Part shown: positions 5,894 through 24,152 of the stretch, piece after piece
How the letters are laid out: every line of letters starts with the position of its first letter
Position numbering within the stretch: the first letter of the stretch is position 1
The notes under the pieces: generated by a model
What the model was told of the DNA's origin: nothing
What the model saw: only the letters and a program-made list of their open reading frames with translations
Databases searched by the model: none
Origin: Candidatus Electrothrix sp. GW3-4
GTDB lineage: Bacteria > Desulfobacterota > Desulfobulbia > Desulfobulbales > Desulfobulbaceae
DNA: 32,000 nt
NCBI RefSeq assembly: GCF_037902255.1
Contig: NZ_CP147990.1
Span: forward strand, 3,540,001 to 3,572,000
Direction of reading: 5' to 3'
Program-made: the position numbers and the translations under genes

Positions 5894-6376
5894 ATGTTGA
5901 AAAAAGTATCTGTGGGATGTTTCATTGGTGTTATGCTGCTGAACAACGTCCTCTTTGCTCAAGGGGAAGAAATGCCAAAACCAGAAGCAGAGTCGGTTTG
6001 GCAGTATATTACTCAGGAAAAACCCTTCACAGACTGGTCCTTCTGGCCGGATCATCAAGGAACGAACCCCAGTAATGCTCCACATGCCCCAAAGCATAAA
6101 ATATACGTGAACACACAGGCATTGCATTCGAAACAACCGCCACTGCAAGACGGGTCAATGGTGGTAAAGTATAACCTGAGCCCGGCAGATGAGGTGAAGG
6201 CGATAACGCTCATGTACAAGGTAAAGGGATACAACCCTGATGCTGGTGACTGGTTTTGGGTGCAGTACAGCCCGACCGGTGAGGTGTACGAAGCAGGAAA
6301 GCTTGAAAAATGTATAGGTTGCCATGCAGCCAAGTCAGCATCAGACTATATTTTGGTGCATAAGTTCAACAATTGA
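5894..6376 (+). CDS. Secreted mono-heme protein, cytochrome P460-like family
   Basis: RBS AAGGAGGAG. Signal peptide ending VLFAQG. A single CIGCH heme motif near the C-terminus, preceded by DAGDWFWVQYSPTGEVYEAGK, a pattern I associate with P460-type proteins. Confidence 0.65.
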   Translation: MLKKVSVGCFIGVMLLNNVLFAQGEEMPKPEAESVWQYITQEKPFTDWSFWPDHQGTNPSNAPHAPKHKIYVNTQALHSKQPPLQDGSMVVKYNLSPADEVKAITLMYKVKGYNPDAGDWFWVQYSPTGEVYEAGKLEKCIGCHAAKSASDYILVHKFNN

Positions 6377-10490: not shown

Positions 10491-11765
10491 CTAGTAAATC
10501 CCCAAGGCCTCTACAGTCTCTTTTGTCAGTCCGCCCCCCTGAGCAAGTCCATTTTCACCCTGAAAAGCTCGAATAGCCTCATTGGTTGCCGGATTCAGCT
10601 TTCCATCAATCAGGCCGTTGTAAAAACCCAGCTGGCTTAAGGCTGTCTGTACCTGACGGATAGTTGAGTCAACAAGTTCGTCCTTACACAGTGCTGGCTT
10701 CCAGACTATCCTGGAATCGCTCACTTTAACCTTTTTAACAATGGTCTTGTACTCAGCAGGAACTGAAATAATATTCTCTTCTGCCGGTTTGACGAGTTTC
10801 TTTACCTTGACCGTTTTGTACTCAGGAGGAACAGGGACAGTACGTGACTGGGCCGGAGCGACCATTACTTTCTTCCTGATCATCTGGGTGACCGCAGGTA
10901 TGGTGACGACCTCCGTTCTCGCCGGAGCAACCATTACCTGCTTACGTACAGTTCCATATTCTGCTGGTATGGTGACGATTTCTGTCCTGGCAGGCTCAAC
11001 AACAACCCTTTTCCGAACAGTCTTGTATTCAGCAGGAATAACAACTTCCTGGCGGCATCCACCGATTTCACCTGCACAGTCTTTCGGTACTTTCTTGATC
11101 ACCGTCTTGTACATGGCTGGAACAGCTACGTAACATAGAGTATCACAGTCGGTCAACCCCATCTTAATATCTTCTGGTGAACAATGGGTGGTCTTTTTAA
11201 TCCATTTTGCAGAAGGTGCCTTAACCAAAACCTGCTCTTTCACCTCCTCATAACCAGGATCAGTGATGGTGATGGTGACAACTTCAGGAGAAACCATCAC
11301 CTGCTCATCTACCCATTCATACCGGGCAGGGATAGATTGCAGCTCCTCAGAAGCCTCCTTGATCACGACCTGTTCATCACGCCATTCATACTGGGCAGGA
11401 ATGACGTTAATCTCTTCTGAACCTTCTTTGATAACGACCTCTTCATCCCTCCACTCAAACTGGGCAGGAATTGTCTCAATCTTCTCAGAAGCTTCTTTAG
11501 CGATAACCCGTTCGTCAATCCATTCATACTCAGCCGGGATAATTTCTGTTCGTTCCATAGCTGGTGCAATCTCAATTTCTTCCTCTACATCCTCATAGAC
11601 AGCAGGAGCAAGACAACGAGAGTAACACTCACCAGGCTGAACATTGGCCGGGAATCCCTCATTAATGAATTGAGCCGGATCAATCTGACCATACTGAGCA
11701 GCTGCGGGTGAAGATACCGCGAAGAGCAAAGCGGCAGCTACCACGAAATTCCTTTTCTTCAACAT
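10491..11765 (-). CDS. Secreted repeat protein (about eleven ~23-aa xPAxY repeats, Cys-rich centre) with a C-terminal PG_binding_1-type domain; paralog 2
   Basis: I prefer the start MLKKRNFVVAAALLFAVSSPAAAQ at 11765 because the track extension runs into the intergenic hairpin. Repeats include IPAEYEWIDERVIAKEASEKIET and IPAEYKTVRKRVVVEPARTEIVT. C-terminus LSQLGFYNGLIDGKLNPATNEAIRAFQGENGL. Confidence 0.75.
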   Translation of the reverse strand: MLKKRNFVVAAALLFAVSSPAAAQYGQIDPAQFINEGFPANVQPGECYSRCLAPAVYEDVEEEIEIAPAMERTEIIPAEYEWIDERVIAKEASEKIETIPAQFEWRDEEVVIKEGSEEINVIPAQYEWRDEQVVIKEASEELQSIPARYEWVDEQVMVSPEVVTITITDPGYEEVKEQVLVKAPSAKWIKKTTHCSPEDIKMGLTDCDTLCYVAVPAMYKTVIKKVPKDCAGEIGGCRQEVVIPAEYKTVRKRVVVEPARTEIVTIPAEYGTVRKQVMVAPARTEVVTIPAVTQMIRKKVMVAPAQSRTVPVPPEYKTVKVKKLVKPAEENIISVPAEYKTIVKKVKVSDSRIVWKPALCKDELVDSTIRQVQTALSQLGFYNGLIDGKLNPATNEAIRAFQGENGLAQGGGLTKETVEALGIY

Positions 11766-11826
11766 TTCTTCTTTTTCCCTTTTTCTGATACGTATTCTCG
11801 GGTTATACGGTGTAAAAACAGAAAGA

Positions 11827-11845
11827 GGCACTTAAAAAAGTGCCC
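11827..11845 (-). terminator. Intergenic hairpin between the two paralogs
   Basis: ggcactt (11827-11833) pairs with aagtgcc (11839-11845) across a 5-nt A loop. T-rich sequence follows on both strands. Confidence 0.4.
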
Positions 11846-11872
11846 CTTTTTTCTTCTTTGTTGTCTAATCGA

Positions 11873-13279
11873 CTAGTAGATTCCTAAAGACTCAAGCGTT
11901 TCGATGGTCATCCCACCACCCTGCGGTAAGGCACGATCTGCCTGATAGGCTCTCAGTGCCTCATTGGTCTCCGGGGTCAGGACACCATTAATCTCACCAG
12001 CGTAAAAGCCTTCTCGACTCAAAGCACTTTGCATTTCTCTGATCTTCGAATCAACGGCTTCATCCTCACAAAGAGCCGGACGCCATACGATCTTACTATC
12101 GCTAACTTTAACTTTTTTGATAATAGTCTTGTATTCGGCAGGAACCTGAATAACGTTTTCCTCAGCCGCTTTCACAAGCTTTTTCACCTTGACTGTCTTG
12201 TACTCAGCAGGAACCGGGATAACCTCTGTTCTGGCAGGCTCAACCATTACCCTCTTCCGTACCATTCTGTACTCAGCAGGTATATTAACGACTTCTGTCC
12301 TGGCAGGCTCAACCAAAACCTGCTTGCGTACCATTCTGTACTCAGCAGGAATCTGAACCGTTTCGGTCCTTGCGGGCTCTACCACAACCTTTGTTCTGAT
12401 CGGCTTGTATTCTGCCGGGATGACCACTTCCTGACGGCATCCGTCAACTCCACCAGCACAGTCCGTGGGTACCTTTTTGATAACCGTCTTATACATAGCC
12501 GGGACGGCTACATAACAAAGGGTATCACAGTCGGTCAGTCCCATCTTGATATCTTCAGGAGAGCAATGCGTCGCTTTTTTAATCCACTTTGCAGAAGGCG
12601 CCTTGACCAAAACCTGCTCTTTCACCTCTTGAAAACCGGGATCGGTCAGAGTAATCTTGACCATCTCAGGAGAAACCATAACCTGGCCTTCACGCCAAGC
12701 ATAAACTGCGGGAATAGCTTTAAGCTCTTCGGAAGCCTCTTTTACCACTTCCTGAACATCCTGCCACTCGTACCGGGCAGGAATAACCTTGATCTCCTCT
12801 GACGCCTCTTTTACCAAGACCTCTTCTTCGACCCAATCATATTGTGCAGGAATGACCTTAATCTTTTCAGATGCCTCTTTGGCAATGACCTCTTCATCCA
12901 CCCATTCGTATTCGGCAGGAATGATCTCGGTCCGCTCCATCGCTGGAGCTACCTCAATTTGCTCTTCTACATCTTCAAACACAGCCGGAGCAAGACAGCG
13001 AGAGTAGCACTCACCAGGGTTAACATTGGTCGGCAGCCCTTCACCAAGGTCCTGCTGTGCAACCATTGGCGCAGCAGCAACTGGCCCAGACATCTGCACA
13101 ACATCTTGAGCGACAACCTGCTGGGCAGCCTGTTGCTCTCCTTTTGCCTCTTCACAAGGGCCCTGAACACAGGGCTGTTCACCAGAACCCTGCGGGACAT
13201 AGGCTACGTCCGCCACACAACCAGTTAAGGCAAAAAGAGCGATAGCCCCGATGGCCACGCCATTCTTCATCTGTTTCAT
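11873..13279 (-). CDS. Lipoprotein repeat protein (same xPAxY repeat architecture) with a C-terminal PG_binding_1-type domain; paralog 1
   Basis: RBS AAGGAGAGG. Lipobox LFALTGC. A Q/A-rich linker, then acidic repeats (IPAEYEWVDEEVIAKEASEKIKV), then basic repeats (IPAEYRMVRKQVLVEPARTEVVN). C-terminus LSREGFYAGEINGVLTPETNEALRAYQ. Confidence 0.8.
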   Translation of the reverse strand: MKQMKNGVAIGAIALFALTGCVADVAYVPQGSGEQPCVQGPCEEAKGEQQAAQQVVAQDVVQMSGPVAAAPMVAQQDLGEGLPTNVNPGECYSRCLAPAVFEDVEEQIEVAPAMERTEIIPAEYEWVDEEVIAKEASEKIKVIPAQYDWVEEEVLVKEASEEIKVIPARYEWQDVQEVVKEASEELKAIPAVYAWREGQVMVSPEMVKITLTDPGFQEVKEQVLVKAPSAKWIKKATHCSPEDIKMGLTDCDTLCYVAVPAMYKTVIKKVPTDCAGGVDGCRQEVVIPAEYKPIRTKVVVEPARTETVQIPAEYRMVRKQVLVEPARTEVVNIPAEYRMVRKRVMVEPARTEVIPVPAEYKTVKVKKLVKAAEENVIQVPAEYKTIIKKVKVSDSKIVWRPALCEDEAVDSKIREMQSALSREGFYAGEINGVLTPETNEALRAYQADRALPQGGGMTIETLESLGIY

Positions 13280-13736
13280 CGCACCTCTCCTTTACCTCTC
13301 CGTTCATCTGCAACCAACAGAGCCAAATGCACGAAAAAGTATCAAGATAACAAGTTATTCTTTAACCAACACGGTTTACTTCAGTAACATCTCAACAGGA
13401 GCGCGGCTTTTTTGCTACCGACTGTCTGCAGCTACTGAAACTTTTGCATGTTTGAGAGATACCATCCCCCCAAAAAAATAGCAATACAAAAAACTGTACA
13501 AGAAATAAAAAGACGACATTTTTTCCAGAATGCTTCTGGGTATCCCTTCTGACTCACAGCTGATATTTTATTCCGGCCAACGAGCAGAAAAATATCTTCC
13601 TCAATTCATGCCATCCAATAGATTAAATTGACCGATTTGGATCGCATATTGCACACAGAACAAAAGGTCGAGAACAATTACTATTCCTTGAGCACTCTCG
13701 ATAAAAGTATAATTTATTGTACCGTTAAAATATTTT

Positions 13737-15716
13737 TTAAACCACACGCTCGTTTCCACCGTCAACGGGCAACTGGGCCGCTGTTGTGCAAGCGAACAAG
13801 AGTCCACACATTTCAGATGCCAATTCAGCAACCTGCCGACTCAACACCTCGACCCCAAGCAAATTATTGGTCTTATACTGCTGTACAGATAATCCATAAT
13901 GCCCTGCCCTGGCCTCCAGTACCTCGTCCGTCCAAATTCCCGTATCAAAAACTGCATTCGGGTGCAGGGCATTTATTCGGATTCCATCCCGACCCCATTC
14001 CAGGGCAGCGACCCGCATCAACTGGGTTAAGGCTGCCTTGGAAGCAGAATACGCCCCTGCACCTGGGCCGGGAGCAGGTACATTTTTTGATCCGACCACC
14101 ACCACACGCCCTTTGCCCGGAGCGCATTTCAGCAGCGGATAACACTCCCGGAGCAGAACAAGATTAGCCTCAAGATTCACCGCCATCACCTTGTGCCATA
14201 CCTCCAGGGACAGTTCAGCAACCGTCGTGCTGGCAGGAAACATCCCTGCATTCAATACCAACATATCCAACCCGCCAAAACGACAAACAGCCAGGTCTAA
14301 GGCCTTCTGCACCTGGCCCTCATCGGTCAGATCACATTGAATGCCAAGGAATCCACGAGCAGAGGAAACACCCGCAATGCGCTCGTCAATATCCAAACCT
14401 ACGACGGCCGCACCTCGTTGCAGGAATGAATCAACGCAGGCCTTGCCAATTCCTGAAGCCGCTCCGGTGATCAAGACCACCTCGCCAGTAAAAAGCGGAG
14501 GAGCCCCGCCTTTAGCCAATTTGGCCTGTTCCAGATCCCAGTACTCCATATCAAAGAGGTCGTCAGGAGGCAGGGCCTGCCATCCACCAAGCTTCTCTGC
14601 CCGCAGGATGCATTCCATCGTGTGCTCATAGATATCATGAACAATAGCCACATCTTTTGCTGATTTCCCAAGGCAACACAAGCCAAGGTCCTGATCCAAG
14701 ATCAGCCGGGGCGCAGGATCCAACATGGTTTTGCGTTCCTTTGCCGCTGGTTCGTGGGTGTGGAAATAGGCCCTGTACTGCTGCGCATAGCTTGCCACAT
14801 CACGGCCGAGCATGGGCACCGCTTTGGTCCGGATCACATGATCCGGGGTTGCTGGCCCCTGCTGGGAAATCTCCCCCAGGTCATCACGCTGAACAAAAGA
14901 AAGCCCACGGGCACTCTTGGTCACCCGCAGGATCATAGGCCTGCCCGCCTTCTCAGAGACAGACTGGCGCAACTGTGCGACCTCAAGACGGTTAAGCTGG
15001 TCGCAAGCGAACGTATTTTCAGCTGGCGGCTCCAGCTCCCAGGCATCATGGCTAACGAGATAACGCTCCGCCATATCGACCAACTGAATCATCCGCTCAT
15101 AGGACTTCTGGGCCGAATCAGCAAAGGAGAAGACGCCATGATGCAGCAACACCATACCGATGGTCTGCGGCCCAGCCTGTTCGGCAAAGATACGGGCAAC
15201 ATCACGGGCCAGATCAAAGCCCGGCATGACATAAGGAATCACCACCACCTGATCGCCATAGATTTCCTTAATACGCTGGGATCCATCAGCCGTATTGGTA
15301 ATGGTCACCACAGCATCGGCATGGGTATGATCGACATAGCGAAACGGCAAGACTGCATGCAGGATCGTTTCCACCGAGGGGGCCGGGGCATTGGCGCGGG
15401 TCAGCTGGGTCTTCAACTCGTTGACCATTTGCGGATCTGTCAGAGAATCTAAGGCTGCCAACTTAATCATGGGCTGCAAACGCACCGGGGCAAAGCCTTC
15501 TGCTTCGATAGTCTCCAGGTCCCAACCACTCCCTTTAATATAGAGGATCTCCTCCTCTGCACCTACAATGTTTTTCTCTTTGATCTTGACTGAGGTATTG
15601 CCCCCGCCATGCAGAACCAAAGAGGAATCTCGCCCTAATAGACGTGAAGAGTACACTCGTAGCTCAAGTTCGCTTTCACAGGCCTCAGCCTCTTGCTCAT
15701 TCCATAAACTCTGCAT
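13737..15716 (-). CDS. Bifunctional class II aldolase/adducin-domain + short-chain dehydrogenase (rhamnulose-1-phosphate aldolase/SDR-like)
   Basis: N-terminus LRVYSSRLLGRDSSLVLHGGGNTSVK. C-terminal SDR motifs ITGAASGIGKA, NAG and YSASKAAL. I prefer ATG 15716 (AAAGGAA upstream) over the TTG at 15749. Confidence 0.8.
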   Translation of the reverse strand: MQSLWNEQEAEACESELELRVYSSRLLGRDSSLVLHGGGNTSVKIKEKNIVGAEEEILYIKGSGWDLETIEAEGFAPVRLQPMIKLAALDSLTDPQMVNELKTQLTRANAPAPSVETILHAVLPFRYVDHTHADAVVTITNTADGSQRIKEIYGDQVVVIPYVMPGFDLARDVARIFAEQAGPQTIGMVLLHHGVFSFADSAQKSYERMIQLVDMAERYLVSHDAWELEPPAENTFACDQLNRLEVAQLRQSVSEKAGRPMILRVTKSARGLSFVQRDDLGEISQQGPATPDHVIRTKAVPMLGRDVASYAQQYRAYFHTHEPAAKERKTMLDPAPRLILDQDLGLCCLGKSAKDVAIVHDIYEHTMECILRAEKLGGWQALPPDDLFDMEYWDLEQAKLAKGGAPPLFTGEVVLITGAASGIGKACVDSFLQRGAAVVGLDIDERIAGVSSARGFLGIQCDLTDEGQVQKALDLAVCRFGGLDMLVLNAGMFPASTTVAELSLEVWHKVMAVNLEANLVLLRECYPLLKCAPGKGRVVVVGSKNVPAPGPGAGAYSASKAALTQLMRVAALEWGRDGIRINALHPNAVFDTGIWTDEVLEARAGHYGLSVQQYKTNNLLGVEVLSRQVAELASEMCGLLFACTTAAQLPVDGGNERVV

Positions 15717-15875
15717 AGCATTCCTTTGCTCCCTAAGAATCTCCTCCAAAGGCTGGTCCCATGGGGAGACAGTGCATATTGCATATCATCGAAAGCCCGC
15801 CTTATCCTTATCGCCTTAAAATATCCCGTCATATTATCGTATCTTCCCCCAGAAATACAGCATATTTTCCCTACA

Positions 15876-15904
15876 TTGACTATTCTTCGTGAATATCATA
15901 TTAT
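15876..15904 (+). promoter_or_regulatory. Sigma70-type promoter candidate for the selenoprotein-bio operon
   Basis: TTGACT (15876-15881), a 17-nt spacer, then TATTAT (15899-15904). It lies about 90 nt upstream of ATG 15995. Confidence 0.45.
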
Positions 15905-15994
15905 ATAGCCTCCTAAAAAAGCACCCGGCGCCCCTTGCTTCCGCCAAAGGAGGGGGGCAAAGCAGGTTGCCCGTTCTTGCAAAAGAGACAATAA

Positions 15995-16333
15995 ATGGGT
16001 ATTGACAGGACCTACCTCTGGAAGGGATGAACATCCTGTACCCGGGCACAGGCTGAGCTGGTTATAAAAGGTCTAGAGGTAAAAGCGGTTGTCGAGGCAA
16101 GAAAAGAAAAGATCGCCTATGATGCGGCTTGGGGGCTCCTGGGAGCAGCGCACGAAGTGATTGTCGGGCGAGGAAAAAAATTCCAGATCTTTCATCCCGC
16201 CAAGGACGATAAAGAAACCATCCTCAAGGCCTGCCTGGGAAGGTTAGGCAACCTCCGTGCCCCTGCCGTAAAGATGGGGACACGGTTCGTGGTCGGATTT
16301 AACGATGATATGTACGAACAGTTTATAGGATAG
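15995..16333 (+). CDS. ArsC/Spx/YusI-family thioredoxin-fold protein with an in-frame TGA (predicted selenocysteine, UxxC)
   Basis: Absent from the ORF track. Manual translation gives MGIDRTYLWKG-TGA(16028-16030)-TSCTRAQAELVIKGLEV...GRGKKFQIFHP...GNLRAPAVKMGTRFVVGFNDDMYEQFIG*. No ATG/GTG/TTG occurs in frame between the TGA and 16157. UTSCTRAQ sits where the family has CxxC(R/K)KA. A hairpin at 16032-16055 follows the TGA. Confidence 0.6.
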
Positions 16334-17532
16334 TGGATCCATTCACCAGCCGTTTAGCGGAACAATTACACATCTTGTCCGCCCAGGGGATACGACGGGA
16401 GCTCCTTCCTGTTCAAGCAAGGGGTACCGCTCGTCTCCACCATCAAGAGAGGGGGTACCTCAATCTGGCCAGCAACGACTATCTTGGCCTGGCTGGCAAC
16501 TCAACGCTGTTGCAAGGATTTTATGCCGCTCTTGAACAGGAGCACCTTGTTGATCGGTTCGGCTTGGGTAGCGGGGCCTCCCGTCTCATGACCGGCAATC
16601 ATGAGCAATACTCCCGACTGGAAGAAGAACTGGCCCGCTCGTACCATAAAGACAAGGCCCTGATCTTCACTTCAGGCTACCATATTAATATAGGCCTACT
16701 GCCTGCCCTTGCTCAGAAAGGCGATCTGATCCTTGCCGACAAGCTCTGCCATGCCAGCCTCATTGATGGAATGCGTCTTTCCGGGGCCCGGATGATCCGC
16801 TACCCCCACCTTGATTATGAGCGACTGGAACAGTTACTCAAAAAACATCGAGCGGATTCTACCGCTCAAAAAAAGCAGACCATCTTTCTGGTGACCGAGT
16901 CCATTTTTTCCATGGACGGTGATTGTGCCGATCTCCCGCCCCTGGCCCGCCTTAAAGAAAAGTACGGGGCGATCCTCTACGTCGACGAGGCGCATTCGGT
17001 TGGGGTACGTGGCCAACAGGGCTTGGGTTTAGCTGAAGAACAGGGAGTCACTGACCGGATCGACCTGCTGGTCGGGACCTTTGGCAAGGCCTGGGGTGGC
17101 CAAGGGGCCTTTGTGGTCTGCGAAAAAATTATATATGAGTACCTGGTCAATACGGCCCGCTCACTCATCTTTACCACGGCCCTCCCTCCGGTCAACATCC
17201 ATTGGCTCAACTTTATCCTGCCGATCATCCAAAAGATGGAAAAGGAACGACAGCAGCTTGCTGAGCTAGCCCAACAATTACGTTATGGTCTGCAAGGGAC
17301 AGGTCTCCAGACCTGCGGCGAAAGCCATATCGTTCCGGTTCTGATTGGCGACGAAGAGAAAGCTGTTGCTGTTGCCGAAAAACTGCGCCACCAAGGGCTC
17401 TGGGTACAGGCGATCCGCACCCCGACAGTCCCTCGCGGTACAGCCCGCTTGCGCCTCTCCCTGACCGCAGACATGAAAGCGGAGCAGCTAGCGCCATTGC
17501 CGGAACAGATCACTCAGGCCCTTGCAGCATGA
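16333..17532 (+). CDS. bioF: 8-amino-7-oxononanoate synthase
   Basis: The GTG start overlaps the upstream TAG (TAGTG). Motifs NDYLGLA, ESIFSMDGD and DEAHSVG, and the PLP-lysine context GTFGKAWG. Confidence 0.9.
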   Translation: MDPFTSRLAEQLHILSAQGIRRELLPVQARGTARLHHQERGYLNLASNDYLGLAGNSTLLQGFYAALEQEHLVDRFGLGSGASRLMTGNHEQYSRLEEELARSYHKDKALIFTSGYHINIGLLPALAQKGDLILADKLCHASLIDGMRLSGARMIRYPHLDYERLEQLLKKHRADSTAQKKQTIFLVTESIFSMDGDCADLPPLARLKEKYGAILYVDEAHSVGVRGQQGLGLAEEQGVTDRIDLLVGTFGKAWGGQGAFVVCEKIIYEYLVNTARSLIFTTALPPVNIHWLNFILPIIQKMEKERQQLAELAQQLRYGLQGTGLQTCGESHIVPVLIGDEEKAVAVAEKLRHQGLWVQAIRTPTVPRGTARLRLSLTADMKAEQLAPLPEQITQALAA

Positions 17533-18227
17533 AGTTCTGCTGGCTCCATCAACAGGGGAACCGGGACTGTCTGCTCTTTTTCGCAGGCTGGGGCATGTGC
17601 CCAGAACCCTTTCTGGATATTGCCCCAGGCAGCGTTGACGTGCTCATGCTCTATGATCATCGCAGCATGGACCTCCAAGAGATCTCCAGCTTTCTCAAAG
17701 ACCTTCAGGGGAAGGGAGATTATGGCAGGTTGCATCTCCTAGCCTGGTCTATGGGGGTTTGGGCGGCAGCCTTGCTGTTTGGCAATAAAATTCCCTCTCC
17801 ACCTGAGCTTGCTTCGGCGATCGCGATTGGCGGGACCTGCTCCCCCATTGATGACAGGCTTGGTCTCCCTGCGCATAATTTTGCCGACATGGCTGAGCGG
17901 CTTTCTCCGGCCCGGATGAGGGCCTTTCATCGTTCCATGTTTGCTGACCAAGAGGAAGCAGAGCGTTTTACGACCTCTTTCTCCAGGGGAGAGCGCTCCT
18001 TCCAAGGACTTCAGCACGAGCTGCTCACCCTGGCCACAGCCTACAAAGCGCAGCCAGAGGCACCTAACATCTATACCAGCAGGATTGTTACAGGTCGGGA
18101 TCAAATCTTTCCGGCCCGCAATCAGGTTCGCGCCTGGGGCCGCAACAAATGCCGTACACTCTCCCTGCCCCATTTTCCTTTTTATCAGTGGCCCAGCTGG
18201 TCAGCAATGCTTCAGGAGCTCACCTGA
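17529..18227 (+). CDS. bioG: Pimeloyl-ACP methyl ester esterase, BioG (DUF452) type
   Basis: ATGA overlap with bioF. Motifs LLFFAGWGM, HLLAWSMGVW (nucleophile Ser), GGTCSPIDDRLGLP and GRDQIFPARNQ match my recollection of Haemophilus-type BioG. Confidence 0.75.
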   Translation: MKFCWLHQQGNRDCLLFFAGWGMCPEPFLDIAPGSVDVLMLYDHRSMDLQEISSFLKDLQGKGDYGRLHLLAWSMGVWAAALLFGNKIPSPPELASAIAIGGTCSPIDDRLGLPAHNFADMAERLSPARMRAFHRSMFADQEEAERFTTSFSRGERSFQGLQHELLTLATAYKAQPEAPNIYTSRIVTGRDQIFPARNQVRAWGRNKCRTLSLPHFPFYQWPSWSAMLQELT

Positions 18228-18252: not shown

Positions 18253-19089
18253 ATGCAAAAAATCAACAAGGACCTTGTCTGCCGCCAATTTCGCCGGGCC
18301 GCAGCCAGTTATGACCGCCAGGCCACGATCCAACATCGGGTGGCTGACCGACTCCTGGCCCTGGCAGCCCAACATATCCCAGCTCACCCGCTCAATGTCC
18401 TGGAAATCGGCTGCTGTACCGGCCTGCTGACCAGCAAGTTGCTCAACAGCAACATCAAGGTTGGCAGCCTGGTCCTTAATGACCTTATGCCCGACTTTGC
18501 AGAACGACTTCCCCACAACCTTTCTGTTGCTGAGCTCAGCTTTCTCCCTGGTGATATAGAAGGACTCCCCTTGCCCGGCCCCTTTGACCTGATCATTTCC
18601 TCTTCCACCTTTCATTGGTTTGATGACCTAGAGCAGACGCTGAAAAAACTCCTTGCTGCCCTTGCTCCTGGCGGGACACTTGCCTTTTCTCTCTACGGCC
18701 CGAGCAATCTAGCAGAGATCAAAGAACTTACAGGCGTGGGACTTGATTATCTCTCTCTGCCTGAAATAACATCCATACTGGAGAAACATTGCCTCCTTGA
18801 AGAGAGTCACCAGGACAAAGAGGTTTTTCTTTTCCCTCAGCCACGCGATGTCCTCAATCATCTGCGACAGACAGGGGTCAACTCCATCAACCATACCCCC
18901 TGGACCAGGCAACAATTGCGCGACTTTTGTCAGGAATACAAAAAAAGATTTCGCATTGATCGGTCAGTGCGTCTCACCTATCATCCCTTGTATTTCATTG
19001 CCCGAACTTTTCATGGCGAGAGAGAAAGGTCCGTGAGCCGCCAAGCATTAGCCCGCTCTGGGACAAAGAAAAATGAACAGATCAGATAA
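18253..19089 (+). CDS. bioC: Malonyl-ACP O-methyltransferase
   Basis: MQKINKDLVCRQFRRAAASYDRQATIQHRVADRLL. SAM motif VLEIGCCTGLLT. Also SSSTFHW and GGTLAFS. The first 104 codons of the track ORF from 17941 overlap bioG out of frame. Confidence 0.85.
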   Translation: MQKINKDLVCRQFRRAAASYDRQATIQHRVADRLLALAAQHIPAHPLNVLEIGCCTGLLTSKLLNSNIKVGSLVLNDLMPDFAERLPHNLSVAELSFLPGDIEGLPLPGPFDLIISSSTFHWFDDLEQTLKKLLAALAPGGTLAFSLYGPSNLAEIKELTGVGLDYLSLPEITSILEKHCLLEESHQDKEVFLFPQPRDVLNHLRQTGVNSINHTPWTRQQLRDFCQEYKKRFRIDRSVRLTYHPLYFIARTFHGERERSVSRQALARSGTKKNEQIR

Positions 19090-19376: not shown

Positions 19377-19826
19377 ATGAAGATTGTCTGCAAAAACAAG
19401 AAGGCCTTTCATGATTATCATATCGATAAGACCATGGAAGCAGGCATGGTCTTGACCGGACCAGAGGTCAAGTCGTTGCGAGCAGGCCGGGCCAATATTA
19501 AGGATGGCTATGCCCAGCTCAAGAACGGTGAAGTCTTTTTGTACAATATTCATATTTCGCCCTATGCCTTTACCAGCCACTCAGCCACAGACCCACTGCG
19601 AGTGCGTAAGATCCTGTTGCACAAGCGGGAAATACGAAAACTGATCGGCAAGCTGAATGAAAAAGGGGTTGCGCTTATTCCGCTCAAGATATATTTTATT
19701 AATAATGGAAAGGCCAAGATTGAACTTGGCCTGGCTCGCGGCAAGAAGCTCTACGATAAACGAGCCGCTTTAAAAGAAAAGCAATCAAAGCGTGATGTTC
19801 AACGATCATTGCGCCAGCAAGACTAA
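19377..19826 (+). CDS. smpB: SsrA-binding protein
   Basis: [27 protein letters not shown] and a basic C-terminal tail. It lies directly upstream of ssrA. Confidence 0.95.
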
Positions 19827-19831
19827 TACAT

Positions 19832-20193
19832 GGGGGTGAAACGGATTCGACGGGGATATGAAAGCTCAACGTTGCATGCCGAGTGTTCTGTCAGCTCGTA
19901 AACTTGATGGAATCTTAAATATAATCGCTGACGATTATAACTACGCAATGGCAGCGTAAGCTGCTTTGCCGCTTTCCCGGTCCGCGCCCGTAAGGCCGGT
20001 GTAAAGCGTCGACTCTTCGGGCTGGTCTCACCGATGTGCCTCTCATCGGAAAGACGAGAACTTAACAGGCTGGTATTCAGCAATCCCCTGTTCCGGGTGA
20101 GAGCTGGATACGAGATTTTTACCCGGAACTAAGCATGTAGATACGTGAGGGGAGTATTTTCGGACCCGGGTTCAACTCCCGGCACCTCCACCA
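19832..20193 (+). ncRNA. ssrA: tmRNA (one-piece), tag peptide ADDYNYAMAA
   Basis: 5' GGGGGUGAAACGGAUUCGACGGGG. Tag ORF gct gac gat tat aac tac gca atg gca gcg at 19927-19956, then taa at 19957-19959. 3' GGACCCGGGUUCAACUCCCGGCACCUCCACCA. Acceptor pairing is GGGGGUG/CACCUCC with a G-U at position 3. Confidence 0.95.
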
Positions 20194-20204
20194 AGCAGCA
20201 GATA

Positions 20205-20238
20205 AGCCCGCAACCTGATACGGTTTGCGGGCTTTTTT
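20205..20238 (+). terminator. Rho-independent terminator of ssrA
   Basis: agcccgcaa..ttgcgggct stem followed by TTTTTT. Confidence 0.8.
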
Positions 20239-20383
20239 GTGTGCCTTTCCTTCTTTTTTCTTTTTTACAATTATTGTAATGGACTATAGCGGATTTGAGG
20301 TAAACTCCCGATAAGGTCTTCCATCATATATGCGGCCTTTGGAAAAACAACTCACACTCGTACAGAGGAAATCAGGCGATCAA

Positions 20384-20625
20384 TTTTAAAAAGCAGCCGT
20401 TCATCTTTTAAAGATCAGCCACTACTTTTTAAAAGCGGGTGTTGGATTTTAAAAGGTGAGAGGTCTCCTTTTAAAGGTCAGGTCTCAACTTTTAAAACTC
20501 AGGCGGCACCTTTAAAAGGTATGCTCTCATCTTTTCAAGGAGGGCTATGGGAATTAAAAGGTGACGCCTCGCCTTTTAAAGATGGGGCATGGGAATTAAA
20601 AGGCGGGCGGATGGTTAAAAAAAAA
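20384..20625. repeat. Array of 12 phased repeats (~21-bp period) with a (CC)TTTTAAAA(GG) palindromic core
   Basis: T/A core centres lie at about 20387, 20409, 20430, 20450, 20472, 20493, 20513, 20535 (degenerate), 20555, 20577, 20597 and 20616. Spacings are 19-22 bp. atgggaattaaaagg recurs exactly 42 bp apart. No ORF is present. Confidence 0.8.
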
Positions 20626-21167
20626 GACCGGTCGTCTTGTCATCAGAAGCCAGCGACAAAAAGAAAAGGAGAGACATATTTTGAGTAAGAGCGTACTGAA
20701 TTATTGCAGAAAGCAAACGAGATAAAGAAGGCACTGTTGACCTGCTCAAGGGAGTAACTCAGAGGCCGCCGGGAAGGTCAGGTCATTAATGGGAGCTGGC
20801 GAGCTTGGTGGTTTCTGAACACTTGCACACCAGTTGTCTTTAAGATTCGAACCTGTAACCCCGACCGTTAACCCGCATCACTGCGCGGTCTGAAAATGGG
20901 CTGTGATACCGGGAAGGATACATTCTTTCATTACAACAGCCAGTTTATCCTTGCCTTATGAATGTTCTTATGTTTATCAATTGTATTAGTCAGAACTGAT
21001 TAAGTTTCCATGTTATCAATAGATAACCGTTGATATCCTGGAAAAGCAAAAAAGAAATCAATAAACTGGAAATATTTTTCCAGTTTTCTCGCTTAATACG
21101 TAATAGCCTGGAAAGTTGGTCCATATATAGGGTAATACCCTATCCCGATTCCAGGTTATCCACACTG

Positions 21168-22368
21168 TTAGAGCAAGGATATTCTGAGCCATGGACTTTA
21201 ATACAGTAAGCACATTTCAGAGGCTAGGTGTTCCCCCTAATGTAATTAACACGGTTTTGGTAATCATAATCGTTCTTCTTCTCGCACCTTATGTAGGCGG
21301 GACCGATTTTGGGGTTTTTAAAGTACCAGATTTTCCGCCAACAATAGAGTATCTGCTCAAGTGGATCGGGCCGTTTCTATTGTTGGTATTTGTAATTCTA
21401 TTTATACCTGCATGGAAAACTAATAAAGTCGAAATCGGAGCAGAAAAAAAAGATCAGCCAAACGCGGTACATTCGAAGTCTAAGTACAGGCTGCAAAGTA
21501 CTCCAGATATCATTTTAAATGAGCTCCACAGGCAAAATGTTAACACAGGCGGAATTAGAATTATTCCAGGAATCAATATCCATGACCTTAAAAAGCGCAT
21601 TAAAATATTAAACACACAGCTATCTGACGAAAGAATAAATCAATTAGTGGAATCTGCACGTGAAACTGCTTTTACATCCAAGTATGCCGCACCTAAAGAA
21701 GATGAGAAATTAGTAAGTATTACAGAATTGAAGGTTCAAGGAATTCAGGAATGGCACATTTATTTAGAACAATTTTTGTCCAGACTGGGGGTTCCTGATA
21801 TCAAGAACATTGATGTGTTAGATGTGGGTATCGGTAACGCCTATGCGTCGCAAGTATTTTTGGGTAGCTGCGCGAGTTTAACTGGCGTAGATATCTCTCA
21901 TGAGGCGATAACATACGCCAAAAATAAGCTACCTAATGCGGTGTTCAAAATCGGGGGTGCAGAGGATTTAAAAGAAATTGAATCATTTTCGATGGATTTA
22001 TATATATCACTAAGAACATATCAATCGACACTCTTTGATATCAAAGAATCCCTTCATGAGGCATATAGGGTATTAGCAAAAGGTGGAGGACTAGTAGTTT
22101 CCATCCCAAACATGTTTCTTAAAAAAAATGACTCAGGAAAGATCATAGGTGTTTTGTATGGTCTTATACCTCCAGGATCAACCGCACCTAGTGTTGAGTT
22201 TGCAATGCAAATTTCGGAAAAGATTCAAGAATACATGAATTTATTAGGCTTCAAAGACGTCGAACTGTACAAGGAATCGCCGTTCGAAATATTCATTGGC
22301 GCTAGAAAATAAAGCTCTAACACGGCGCTCAAGCGGATGCTCCTGACGTCGCACCGCTTAGCTTGGCG
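21168..22368 (+). mobile_element. Integron-type gene cassette (single ORF plus attC) with no integrase in the window
   Basis: The upstream core G|TTAGAG (21167-21173) is the exact complement of the R'' box CTCTAAC of the attC at the 3' end. This is as expected for one cassette bounded by G|TT crossover points. Confidence 0.6.
21191..22312 (+). CDS. Membrane-anchored class I SAM-dependent methyltransferase (cassette ORF)
   Basis: Two N-terminal TM helices (VINTVLVIIIVLLLAPYV, FLLLVFVILFIPAW). SAM motif I VLDVGIGNAYAS, acidic loop GVDIS, and AKGGGLVVSIPN. Confidence 0.7.
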   Translation: MDFNTVSTFQRLGVPPNVINTVLVIIIVLLLAPYVGGTDFGVFKVPDFPPTIEYLLKWIGPFLLLVFVILFIPAWKTNKVEIGAEKKDQPNAVHSKSKYRLQSTPDIILNELHRQNVNTGGIRIIPGINIHDLKKRIKILNTQLSDERINQLVESARETAFTSKYAAPKEDEKLVSITELKVQGIQEWHIYLEQFLSRLGVPDIKNIDVLDVGIGNAYASQVFLGSCASLTGVDISHEAITYAKNKLPNAVFKIGGAEDLKEIESFSMDLYISLRTYQSTLFDIKESLHEAYRVLAKGGGLVVSIPNMFLKKNDSGKIIGVLYGLIPPGSTAPSVEFAMQISEKIQEYMNLLGFKDVELYKESPFEIFIGARK

Positions 22369-22374
22369 TTAGTC
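22315..22374 (+). other. attC (59-base-element) recombination site, 60 bp
   Basis: R'' CTCTAAC, 6 nt, L'' CTCAAGC, 21 nt, L' GCTTAGC, 5 nt, R' GTTAGTC. The folded form gives a 5-bp R box, an unpaired central spacer, and a 9-bp L stem (G13-C48 to G22-C40) with an extrahelical C16. It begins 3 nt after the stop codon. Confidence 0.65.
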
Positions 22375-22492
22375 GCATAAGAGATTTTATATTAAATTCG
22401 ATTTCCTACCAGGCTCGACACAAAACACCTCATCACACTTTTCCTTTTCTTAACGACCTCAATTTCACCGGCCCGGTGCCTGCATTCAGGTA

Positions 22493-22520
22493 TTGACAAT
22501 ACAGCCCCTTAATGTACTAT
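22493..22520 (+). promoter_or_regulatory. Sigma70-type promoter candidate
   Basis: TTGACA (22493-22498), a 16-nt spacer, then TACTAT (22515-22520). It lies about 77 nt upstream of ATG 22597. Confidence 0.4.
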
Positions 22521-22596
22521 ATTTGTAATCGTGCCCGATCCCCAGTTACAGACATGATTTGTATCACGGTCAGGCCTTCTTGTTTTCGGTGTCCTC

Positions 22597-23280
22597 ATGC
22601 CTTCCCCGCCTCTTATCAAACCCCATTTAGAATACCCTCTTGTTGCCCGTCTCAAAGAACGGGGGATGATCATTCCCGATGAAGCAAGGGCAATCCGCAA
22701 GCTGTCTCAAATAGGATACTACCGGTTAAGCGGCTTCAGCTATCCGTGCAGCCGTCCCAGATTTGACTATGGGGTCCACTTTAATGCTCTTAACTCAGAT
22801 AAAGATGACATTATAACGTTGATCTACATGAGGCGGCATTTTGAGCTCACCGATGATAAAGGCGATGCTTATCAAGTGTTGTCGAACCTCTTACACAAAA
22901 GGGAACGGGCCATAGATACTCGAGAACCCAAAGGCACCGGCGAGAACCATCCTGAGATGGAGGGCGGAAAGTTTTCTTCAGGATGCGATCAACTTATAAA
23001 TGTTATGCCCAGTTTTTCATACTCCGACATGTTACATCGAGTTGAAGATAAAGATTCTTTGAAGTCACTTTACGAATCATGCTCTAATGGCTATGAGAAG
23101 CTGCAAGTGTGCCGACTTATTGAACACGAGGAAAACAATGCTGTTGTTGAGAAATCTATCAAGCAGACATATCACATCGAAAATGAATTCATCTGCCAGC
23201 TTGATCTCGCTGAATTTGACACTATTCCAGAATATGTGATCTCCAAATGTGATGCGATTGTTAGTGGAGATTCAGCATGA
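22597..23280 (+). CDS. Hypothetical protein. The first ~50 aa resemble the N-terminus of Abi (Abi_2/AbiD-F-like) proteins and the remainder is unrecognised (possible fusion or remnant).
   Basis: KPHLEYPLVARLKERGMIIPDEARAIRKLSQIGYYRLSGFSYP matches the Abi_2 N-terminal pattern (..RGL.I.D......L..i.YYRLSGY..PF). After about residue 50 the similarity ends. Confidence 0.4.
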   Translation: MPSPPLIKPHLEYPLVARLKERGMIIPDEARAIRKLSQIGYYRLSGFSYPCSRPRFDYGVHFNALNSDKDDIITLIYMRRHFELTDDKGDAYQVLSNLLHKRERAIDTREPKGTGENHPEMEGGKFSSGCDQLINVMPSFSYSDMLHRVEDKDSLKSLYESCSNGYEKLQVCRLIEHEENNAVVEKSIKQTYHIENEFICQLDLAEFDTIPEYVISKCDAIVSGDSA

Positions 23281-23408
23281 CTCACTCTCAATCAACTCTA
23301 AAACAATTTTCACTAAATTTCGGCAAGTTGCCTTCAGTGCATTTCCATGCATTCCGTGGTTCCGAATCCTTTGGTGCCTTCCGTGGTTAAAAATAGAGGA
23401 CTCCAAAA

Positions 23409-24152
23409 ATGTTAGATTTCACGAAACTCGACGAGCTTAAGCAGAAACTTGATTCCTTCCGGCCTCTGCCACCAGAAATTGTTACTAATCTCCATGAGGA
23501 TCTGGTGCTTCGCTGGACCTACCACTCCAATGCCATTGAAGGCAATACGCTAACTCTGAAAGAAACCAAGGTCGCTCTGGAAGGGATCACTATTGGTGGG
23601 AAAAGCATGCGGGAGCATTTTGAAGCGATCAACCACAGAGAAGCCATTTTTTTCGTTGAAGATCTGGTCAAGAAAAATGAGCCCCTGTCTGAATGGCAGA
23701 TCAAATCGATCCACCAGTTGATCCTGAAAAATATTGATAACAAAAATGCGGGGACCTATAGGAAAACAAATGTCATTATCTCTGGTGCCGATCATGTACC
23801 GCCTGATGCTTTGCATGTAGAAAATGATATGCAACATTTTATCAACTGGTATCAAATTGAGGGGACATCTCTTCATCCGGTAGAACGAGCTGCCCGTGTA
23901 CATGCTGATTTTGTGAAAATCCATCCCTTTGTAGACGGCAATGGCAGGACATCACGGCTGCTGATGAATCTGGAATTGACGAAAAGTGGCTTTCCACCGG
24001 TTGTCCTGCCTGTGGAAAATCGACTGGCGTATTACGAGGCTCTGGATAGAGCCCACACGAAAAACGATTATGAACCGTTTTTGATGCTGATTGCGAATAT
24101 TGCGGAATCTGGATTCAAACCTTACTGGCATGCATTGGGGGTCACCCCATGA
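23409..24152 (+). CDS. fic: Fic/DOC family protein (AMPylase-type Fic motif)
   Basis: Core motif HPFVDGNGRTSRLLMN (HxFx[DE]GNGRxxR). N-terminal helical region with SNAIEGNTLT. Confidence 0.9.
   Translation: MLDFTKLDELKQKLDSFRPLPPEIVTNLHEDLVLRWTYHSNAIEGNTLTLKETKVALEGITIGGKSMREHFEAINHREAIFFVEDLVKKNEPLSEWQIKSIHQLILKNIDNKNAGTYRKTNVIISGADHVPPDALHVENDMQHFINWYQIEGTSLHPVERAARVHADFVKIHPFVDGNGRTSRLLMNLELTKSGFPPVVLPVENRLAYYEALDRAHTKNDYEPFLMLIANIAESGFKPYWHALGVTP

Follow-up and report, generated by a model that had tools for sequence, protein, structure and literature searches.

The window analysed here is a 32,000-nucleotide (nt) stretch of the genome of Candidatus Electrothrix sp. GW3-4 (contig NZ_CP147990.1). 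Near its middle lies a short gene whose reading frame is interrupted by a single TGA and whose stop codon overlaps the start of bioF (Table 1). This gene very probably encodes a genuine selenocysteine (Sec)-containing redox protein of the ArsC/Spx type and is the first gene of a bioF-bioG-bioC operon. It is counted as Sec-encoding because the UGA codon is conserved, because homologues with cysteine at this position exist, because the protein belongs to family NF041106, and because a conserved hairpin follows the UGA.

Reading frame of the gene and conservation of the UGA codon

The translation of the gene reads MGIDRTYLWKG, a stop, TSCTRAQAELVIKGLEV...GNLRAPAVKMGTRFVVGFNDDMYEQFIG and the final stop; the TGA is the only internal stop. 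A TAA stands immediately 5' of the ATG. An earlier note, made from the letters of this DNA, had described a 100-codon frame to which reading through the TGA adds 11 codons, and had placed it first in the bioF-bioG-bioC cluster with a stop overlapping the GTG of bioF. Translation and gene order confirm both statements. Downstream of the TGA, the first in-frame ATG, GTG or TTG is the GTG at 16157. The conserved frame thus runs for 42 codons before any start of its own, and it is therefore not expressible by itself. Over 13.5-14.7 kb the DNA of the window is identical to contigs from two independently assembled sequencing runs, which rules out an assembly error at the TGA or at any other base here.

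Table 1. Coordinates of the selenoprotein gene, its elements and the genes that follow it (positions in the window)
Feature	Position	Strand	Basis
Candidate sigma-70-like promoter, TTGACT-17-TATTAT, about 90 nt 5' of the ATG	15876-15904	+	10 of 12 consensus positions
ArsC/Spx-like selenoprotein gene, family NF041106	15995-16333	+	112 codons; NF041106 score, homologues
In-frame UGA, predicted selenocysteine 12, first residue of UxxC	16028-16030	+	TGA/Cys conservation across loci
Palindrome CAUCCUGUACCCGGGCACAGGCUG, possible competitor or alternative structure	16032-16055	+	-5.9 kcal/mol
TGT, Cys15, predicted resolving cysteine of the U-T-S-C motif	16037-16039	+	xSC conserved
SECIS-like hairpin position of the clade, stem GGGCACA / UGAGCUG, loop GGC at 16051-16053	16044-16060	+	homology to relatives
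Possible alternative hairpin, CAG/CUG stem extended via a bulge, loop GCUGAG	16045-16063	+	-4.1 kcal/mol; inference only
Window-specific A (GAG Glu21 for GTG Val), setting an A·A mismatch mid-stem in the SECIS hairpin	16056	+	comparison with relatives
Invariant GNLRAP motif, residues 85-90, predicted cis-Pro loop of a thioredoxin-like fold	16247-16264	+	three alignments
TAGTG overlap of the selenoprotein gene stop and the bioF start	16331-16335	+	G at 16333 common to the TAG stop (16331-16333) and the bioF GTG
bioF, 8-amino-7-oxononanoate synthase	16333-17532	+	TIGR00858, 429.6 bits (cut-off 426.45)
bioG, pimeloyl-ACP methyl ester esterase family (PF04301), overlaps the bioF stop	17529-18227	+	Pfam BioG on the identical gene of locus L085
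bioC-type methyltransferase	18253-19089	+	gene call and methyltransferase Pfam on the identical gene of L085; synteny in L001 and L004

Relatives were collected in a scan of one genome per species, which returned at least 513 of them. The best 80 were taken and form, with the window and four loci taken earlier, a set of 85 loci (numbered with the prefix L). The codon aligned to the one at 16028-16030 is TGA in 81 of these loci, that is, in the window and 80 others, and TGC or TGT in the remaining four. An ATG is found 8-13 codons 5' of this codon in all 85 loci (at 11 codons in 71), and conservation of the peptide M.IDWAYLRKG-U-xSC.KAQ extends to either side of the UGA. A scan of metagenomes for closer relatives gave only four further loci, none above 67% identity. 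All four have TGA, which brings the count to 85 of 89, a frequency far from what chance would give. The T and G of the Cys15 codon (alignment columns T16 and G17) are invariant in 81 sequences.

A protein search of a large collection found 93 relatives, most of which are gene calls of 85-97 residues starting just past the UGA region. These short calls come from Candidatus Electrothrix, Desulfobulbus and unnamed metagenome bins. Their truncating start is the GTG of Val21, which lies inside the first helix, and the redox motif is thereby removed. In contrast to the short calls, a few Desulfobacter proteins of 111 residues, named "ArsC family (seleno)protein" by NCBI, are full length. They read MTIEWAYIRKGCTSCKKA, and their first Cys (in GCTSCKKA) aligns with the TGA of the window. 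The proposal in the earlier note of a selenoprotein with a UxxC motif, and its expectation that homologues would align a Cys to the TGA, are thus borne out by these proteins and by the four loci with TGC or TGT. Another variation is found in a Desulfobulbus copy (L042, about 6001-6357), which has Cys for Sec and Ser for the resolving Cys (GCVSS, a CxxS form).

Of 27 highly conserved columns, the window protein differs from the family in just two, W5R and R9W. The two changes are reciprocal: the TGG and AGG codons at 16007-16009 and 16019-16021 are exchanged, and both residues are nearly invariant in the family. This swap may be a compensated pair. No acceleration is seen in a relative-rate test of the window protein against its nearest relative (L001), and at the protein level it does not look as if it were decaying.

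Family, fold and the hairpin downstream of the UGA

When U is written as C, the protein scores 102 bits against the NCBIfam model NF041106, "ArsC family (seleno)protein" (cut-off 85, E = 2.6e-29), and the match covers positions 1-107 of the 107 in the profile. The models for Spx and MgsR are not reached: the scores are 15.2 bits for TIGR01617 (cut-off 75.05) and 12.2 bits for NF002459 (cut-off 123). The fold was modelled with AlphaFold on a Cys homologue (P0089), giving a mean predicted local distance difference test (pLDDT) score of 94.4 and a predicted template modelling (pTM) score of 0.88. In this model the redox Cys directly precedes a helix (13-24), and the central region has a beta-hairpin (E54-58, E64-67). 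A Foldseek search of PDB with the model puts Bacillus Spx at the top (E = 6e-5, probability 1.00). The top 13 matches are Spx, SMU.1142c, ArsC-related proteins and YffB, with probabilities of 0.96-1.00 and template modelling (TM) scores of 0.50-0.55, and glutaredoxin and NrdH-like structures rank only below them. This agrees with the assignment to the ArsC/Spx-like superfamily made in the earlier note from the sequence. Judged by the model, the family is a compact, divergent branch of this superfamily, which also explains its weak score with the Pfam ArsC model. The role of the GNLRAP motif as a cis-Pro loop is likewise predicted from the fold class.

A conserved hairpin, centred about 25 nt 3' of the UGA, is found across the family as a candidate SECIS (Sec insertion sequence) element. 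Among the 54 sequences outside the clade of the window it has the form GCnCArGA-GUU-UCUUGnGC and is 75.7% paired, and none of 500 shuffles reached the observed pairing or covariation. The hairpin covaries across the family as a whole. Its pair 27/41 is UA in 24 sequences, CG in nine and GC in three. This pair couples a synonymous third position with an amino-acid-changing second codon position. The clade of the window (27 sequences) has its hairpin in a register 3 nt further 5', as (A/G)GCACA-GGC-UGUG(U/C)U. The cells of this hairpin are 93.7% paired, compared with 26-52% for slid partners. It shows no double substitutions, and the synonymous sites in it do not vary. In the window it corresponds to 16044-16060, and the loop starts 20 nt 3' of the UGA. 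On this sequence comparison, 16044-16060 appears to be the true SECIS element, in an unusually weak form in this organism. RNAalifold finds no consensus structure for all 81 sequences because the two clades use different registers. No SECIS family of Rfam matches the window, either in a search of its whole length at gathering thresholds or in a permissive scan of 15950-16150.

The earlier note had placed the SECIS-like hairpin at 16032-16055 instead. This is a real palindrome, with 15-nt arms that are 87% complementary. As a SECIS candidate it was rejected, since in the 81 Sec-form sequences it is 58.8% paired (61.0% in shuffles) with a covariation of 0.097 (0.107 in shuffles). Its core pairs are invariant largely because the codons for Cys (UGY) and Gln (CAR) dictate them by setting UG against CA.

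The bioF operon and its neighbourhood

Among the 85 loci, bioF lies directly 3' of the selenoprotein gene on the same strand in 21. The same holds for three of the four extra metagenome loci, which makes 24 in total; in the fourth the contig ends too soon to show the next gene. Of the 21 gaps to bioF, 19 measure -26 to +36 nt and the other two 161-196 nt. bioG comes next in all 21, and bioC follows in about half of them within the stretch examined. The CxxS copy of L042 is also still ahead of bioF, with an overlap of about 26 nt. Where bioF-linked loci are named, they are records of Desulfobulbaceae or Desulfobulbus, including the cultured D. rhabdoformis and D. elongatus (L019 and L024), or have Thermodesulfobacteriota as their only label. 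The upstream neighbours vary among sub-groups, and the downstream bio genes are kept.

Conserved promoter-like blocks are found 5' of the selenoprotein gene and none between it and bioF. The block in the window is a candidate promoter by its match to the consensus and its conservation in L001, whose BioF is 75% identical. Seven Desulfobulbus loci (L019, L023, L024, L026, L028, L034 and L035) have a non-coding block …CTATAGTGGATTTT…GGTGGTGGTC…GGGACTATAATG about 60-200 nt 5' of the ATG, and a different upstream block, TTCCTGATGACAAC…GGGTACATTA, is found in L004, L005, L006 and L033. Both are candidate promoters or operators.

The linkage to bioF is real and tight, but it is confined to Desulfobulbales-type sequences and is a property of this lineage, not of the family. 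The question raised in the earlier note, whether relatives keep the gene upstream of bioF, is thus answered positively for the 24 Desulfobulbales-type loci and negatively for other lineages. Most likely the biotin link reflects how operons are organised in this lineage and not a function dedicated to the pathway. Its parsimonious reading is an ancestral Desulfobulbales operon arrangement that has long been kept, possibly for co-expression or coupling. Literature searches for a link between the selenoprotein and bioF returned nothing relevant, and no paper found ties the family to bioF, so the remark in the earlier note that the association is undescribed stands uncontradicted. The bioF-operon context appears to be undescribed and is modest in scope: what seems to be new is only that, in one bacterial order, the gene keeps its place at the front of a biotin operon.

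Other features of the surrounding DNA were also noted. Upstream of the operon and divergent from it (10491-15749, minus strand) are two genes for large PG_binding_1 proteins and one for a bifunctional aldolase/short-chain dehydrogenase (NF006196, 1069 bits). L001 has these three genes upstream as well. Downstream, smpB (19377-19826) is followed after 5 nt by the gene for transfer-messenger RNA (tmRNA, 19832-20193), and then by a methyltransferase, a weak Abi-like open reading frame (ORF) and a Fic/DOC protein. L001 has other cargo in the same place (PhdYeFM/PIN and Gp49/HTH), and the region 19377-24152 looks like a variable island beside ssrA. Directly 3' of the tmRNA gene and its terminator-like hairpin, about eight copies of a 21-nt unit (TTTAAAAGG-N11/12-CTTTTAAAGG) are found at 20385-20595, inside a 129-codon ORF (20290-20688). 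These repeats could be iterons or a region coding for heptad repeats.

Interpretation and comparison with known systems

In the interpretation favoured here, that of a Sec-encoding redox protein gene at the head of the bioFGC operon, transcription would start from the promoter about 90 nt upstream and the selenoprotein gene, bioF, bioG and bioC would be transcribed together. The hairpin at 16044-16060, with its G-rich loop about 20 nt 3' of the UGA, would direct recoding, and Sec would be inserted efficiently in this organism despite the mismatch in the stem. Residue 12 would then be a Sec placed just before the first helix and paired with Cys15. The protein is predicted to cycle between a selenol/thiol and a selenenylsulfide form in the way of a glutaredoxin- or thioredoxin-type reductase. 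Because the stop overlaps the bioF start, some translation of bioF would probably be carried out by ribosomes that have passed the UGA.

Several results weigh against this interpretation or against parts of it. No selA, selB, selC or selD is found in the window or in any fetched locus, and tblastn searches of the same DNA with SelA, SelB and SelD of E. coli gave no matches. (The RNA genes of the window are a tRNA-Arg and the tmRNA only, and no other convincing frame interrupted by TGA came out of a scan of the window.) The Pfam model PF03960 (ArsC), which the earlier note had expected to match, covers profile positions 2-79 of 79 with 13.8 bits, below its threshold of 24. A profile search against PDB sequences gave nothing significant. 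The modelled P0089 is only 41% identical to the window protein, and its structure was predicted with the family alignment as input. The hairpin of the window is the weak member of its clade: the 26 relatives have 6-7 base pairs and -4.0 to -7.3 kcal/mol, whereas the window has -1.1 kcal/mol and pair probabilities of at most 0.07. It is the only one of the 27 sequences left unpaired at pair 27/35, with an A·A mismatch, and its 66-nt region folds no better than shuffled sequences (z = +2.4). The base responsible, at 16056, is A in both independent assemblies of the window and T in all four extra metagenome loci, and replacing it by U in silico gives -6.3 kcal/mol.

The neighbourhoods in other lineages also speak against a function tied to biotin. 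In Desulfocapsa (L030, 3886-7570; L036; L037) the selenoprotein gene lies between argD and argF, in the order argB-argD-X-argF. In six loci it adjoins a predicted permease gene of PF03773 (ArsP_1) (L021, 4680-5774; L029; L040; L050; L054; L057), and in five it comes after a gene for a topoisomerase or gyrase A-like protein; elsewhere, unrelated genes adjoin it. These unrelated neighbours outside Desulfobulbales argue against a biotin-specific function. A loose scan for a BirA operator (TGTNAAC-N12-18-GTTNACA) gave no enrichment, with hits in nine of 22 bioF-linked and 27 of 62 unlinked upstream regions. As observations in their own right, the Desulfocapsa arrangement is a second residence of the gene in an operon of amino-acid or cofactor biosynthesis, and the ArsP_1 neighbourhood is the sole context that hints at a link to arsenicals or thiol transport. 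The Aminotran_3 neighbour in Desulfocapsa was considered as BioA and rejected: it is the ArgD of argB-argD-X-argF and provides no independent biotin link.

How far these results favour other explanations differs from case to case. That sequencing or assembly turned a TGC or TGT into this TGA by mistake has next to no probability left, and is effectively refuted by the identity of the two separately assembled runs and by the TGA in 85 of 89 homologous loci. Nor is it at all probable that the UGA simply terminates translation and that the true start lies downstream, as in the 92-residue gene calls of relatives. Most database homologues are indeed annotated with 85-97 residues and a start just after the UGA region, but starts at the Val21 GTG cut into the first helix and take away the redox motif, the window has GAG at this codon and lacks any start for 42 codons, the 11 upstream codons and the ATG are conserved in 85 of 85 loci, and the Cys-form homologues have their full 111 residues. 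A recently disabled gene is a more substantial alternative, though still an unlikely one. Here the T-to-A change at 16056 would have crippled the SECIS element, ribosomes would mostly terminate at the UGA after 11 codons, and what follows would be a young pseudogene with bioF translated independently. The window is the sole one of 31 clade sequences with this mismatch in the stem, its canonical hairpin drops to the -1.1 kcal/mol and pair probabilities given above, and the same change abolishes the GTG which serves gene callers as start codon in relatives. Against it, the 100-codon frame after the UGA is intact, only the two of 27 conserved columns are departed from, and the rate relative to L001 is not raised. 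Alternative hairpins with G-containing loops are also available, at -4.1 and -5.9 kcal/mol, and the SECIS element of E. coli fdhF tolerates a single internal mismatch or bulge. An intact gene of this kind is, however, just what would be seen if the lesion were very recent.

The remaining alternatives concern biotin rather than Sec. The position of the gene would be more than inherited order if the protein served specifically in biotin synthesis or acted on the bio operon as an Spx-like redox regulator; this is doubtful. The tight linkage persists through changes of the upstream neighbours and over identities as low as about 45% for the ArsC-like protein and 52% for BioF, the Cys-form copy (CxxS) of L042 is also kept before bioF, and the closest structural matches are Spx transcription factors. 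On the other hand, the steps of BioC, BioG and BioF are not known to involve thiol-disulfide chemistry, and the middle subdomain differs from that of Spx, with a TM score of only about 0.55. In a neighbour-joining tree, moreover, close relatives that are not beside bioF (L007, L009-L012 and L018, labelled Thermodesulfatator, Thermodesulfobacteriaceae and Deltaproteobacteria) are nested in the bioF-linked group, and other lineages have the arginine-operon, ArsP and further contexts. A bolder idea, of rather slight probability, is that the gene forms a selenium-dependent, low-efficiency translational gate for biotin synthesis in Desulfobulbales, or that the selenoprotein has a redox or Spx-like regulatory role in the pathway, or both, and that the weakened SECIS element of the window is a tuning mutation and not damage. 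bioF starts at or a few nt from the selenoprotein stop, often without a well-spaced Shine-Dalgarno sequence, and so the amount of BioF made would vary with the share of ribosomes getting past the UGA.

The practical consequence of a Sec-encoding gene at this locus lies in annotation. No gene is called here in either of the Logan assemblies that carry the locus, and dozens of relatives are cut to about 92 residues as gene callers stop at the UGA. Calls of this kind, short or missing, are a systematic error in how a curated selenoprotein family is annotated, and correcting them gives the redox motif back. "Unannotated", the word used in the earlier note, is therefore right for this record and for the many truncated 92-residue calls and wrong for the family itself, which is curated and published. 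General knowledge of selenoproteins is unchanged by the finding. The family is catalogued and has no assigned function, and its conserved, tightly coupled position before bioF-bioG-bioC in one order gives a concrete, testable handle. The mismatch in the SECIS stem of the window is a natural experiment on how much stem disruption is tolerated by Sec insertion.

Among known systems, the SECIS elements of the fdhF type resemble the hairpin described here in being short, lying within the coding region soon 3' of the UGA, and having a small apical loop that contains G (GGC, GGA or GUU). Such a small G-containing loop is a common feature of bacterial SECIS elements (PMC1088965). The differences are the lack of an Rfam match, the two registers used in different clades and the internal mismatch of the window copy.

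Glutaredoxin-coupled ArsC of the R773 type (PF03960) and the UxxS form known as "Arsenate reductase 1" share with this protein the superfamily, the fold class and an N-terminal nucleophile. The present protein, in contrast, has UxxC and not UxxS, is about 30 residues shorter and stays below the PF03960 threshold. No ars operon is found around any of the 85 loci, and an ArsP-type permease is a neighbour in the six mentioned above. Given the weak PF03960 score, the UxxC motif, the shorter length and this lack of an ars operon, arsenate reduction is unsupported as its function.

Spx and MgsR, the redox regulators of Bacillus that bind RNA polymerase, are the best structural matches (PDB 1z3e and 6gho). 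The differences are that their models yield no more than 12-15 bits where cut-offs of 75-123 apply, and that the superpositions have TM scores of 0.5-0.55 with a root-mean-square deviation above 6 Å and a central beta-hairpin on the side of the present family. The C10-T-S-C13 of Spx presumably stands in the same place as U12-T-S-C15 here, and we take the C-terminal motifs R-P ... G-(F/Y)-N to be alike in the two.

The closest comparison is with NF041106 itself, also called "arsenate reductase-like protein" (UxxC), "ArsC-like" (Zhang et al. 2006) and "Arsenate reductase 2" (Zhang & Gladyshev 2008). A UxxC family of this kind has been in the selenoproteome literature since 2006-2008 (PMC1794560, PMC2398784). 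ArsC-like selenoproteins are reported in Desulfotalea psychrophila, together with SelD and 12 selenoproteins, and in Desulfuromonas acetoxidans (PMC1794560). For a Sec machinery in the present organism, the report on D. psychrophila is indirect support. The class "Arsenate reductase 2, UxxC" comes from ocean metagenomes (PMC2398784), ArsC-type selenoproteins of the UxxS form are known from the Sargasso Sea (PMC1088965), and a 2026 review gives NF041106 as a UxxC selenoprotein (PMC13188914). The undescribed family implied by the earlier note is thus one with a curated NCBIfam model and a place in published selenoproteome lists. The window protein shares with it the UxxC motif, a length of about 111 residues, the N-terminal M.IDWAYLRKG-U-xSC, the C-terminal GNLRAP...GFN..Y and the Cys homologues named by NCBI. 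Nothing differs at the family level. The window copy is set apart by its W5R/R9W swap, by the mismatch in its SECIS stem and by its position at the head of the bioFGC operon, which is without mention in the literature searched. The protein family and its use of Sec are already known, and the locus is an unannotated member of it.

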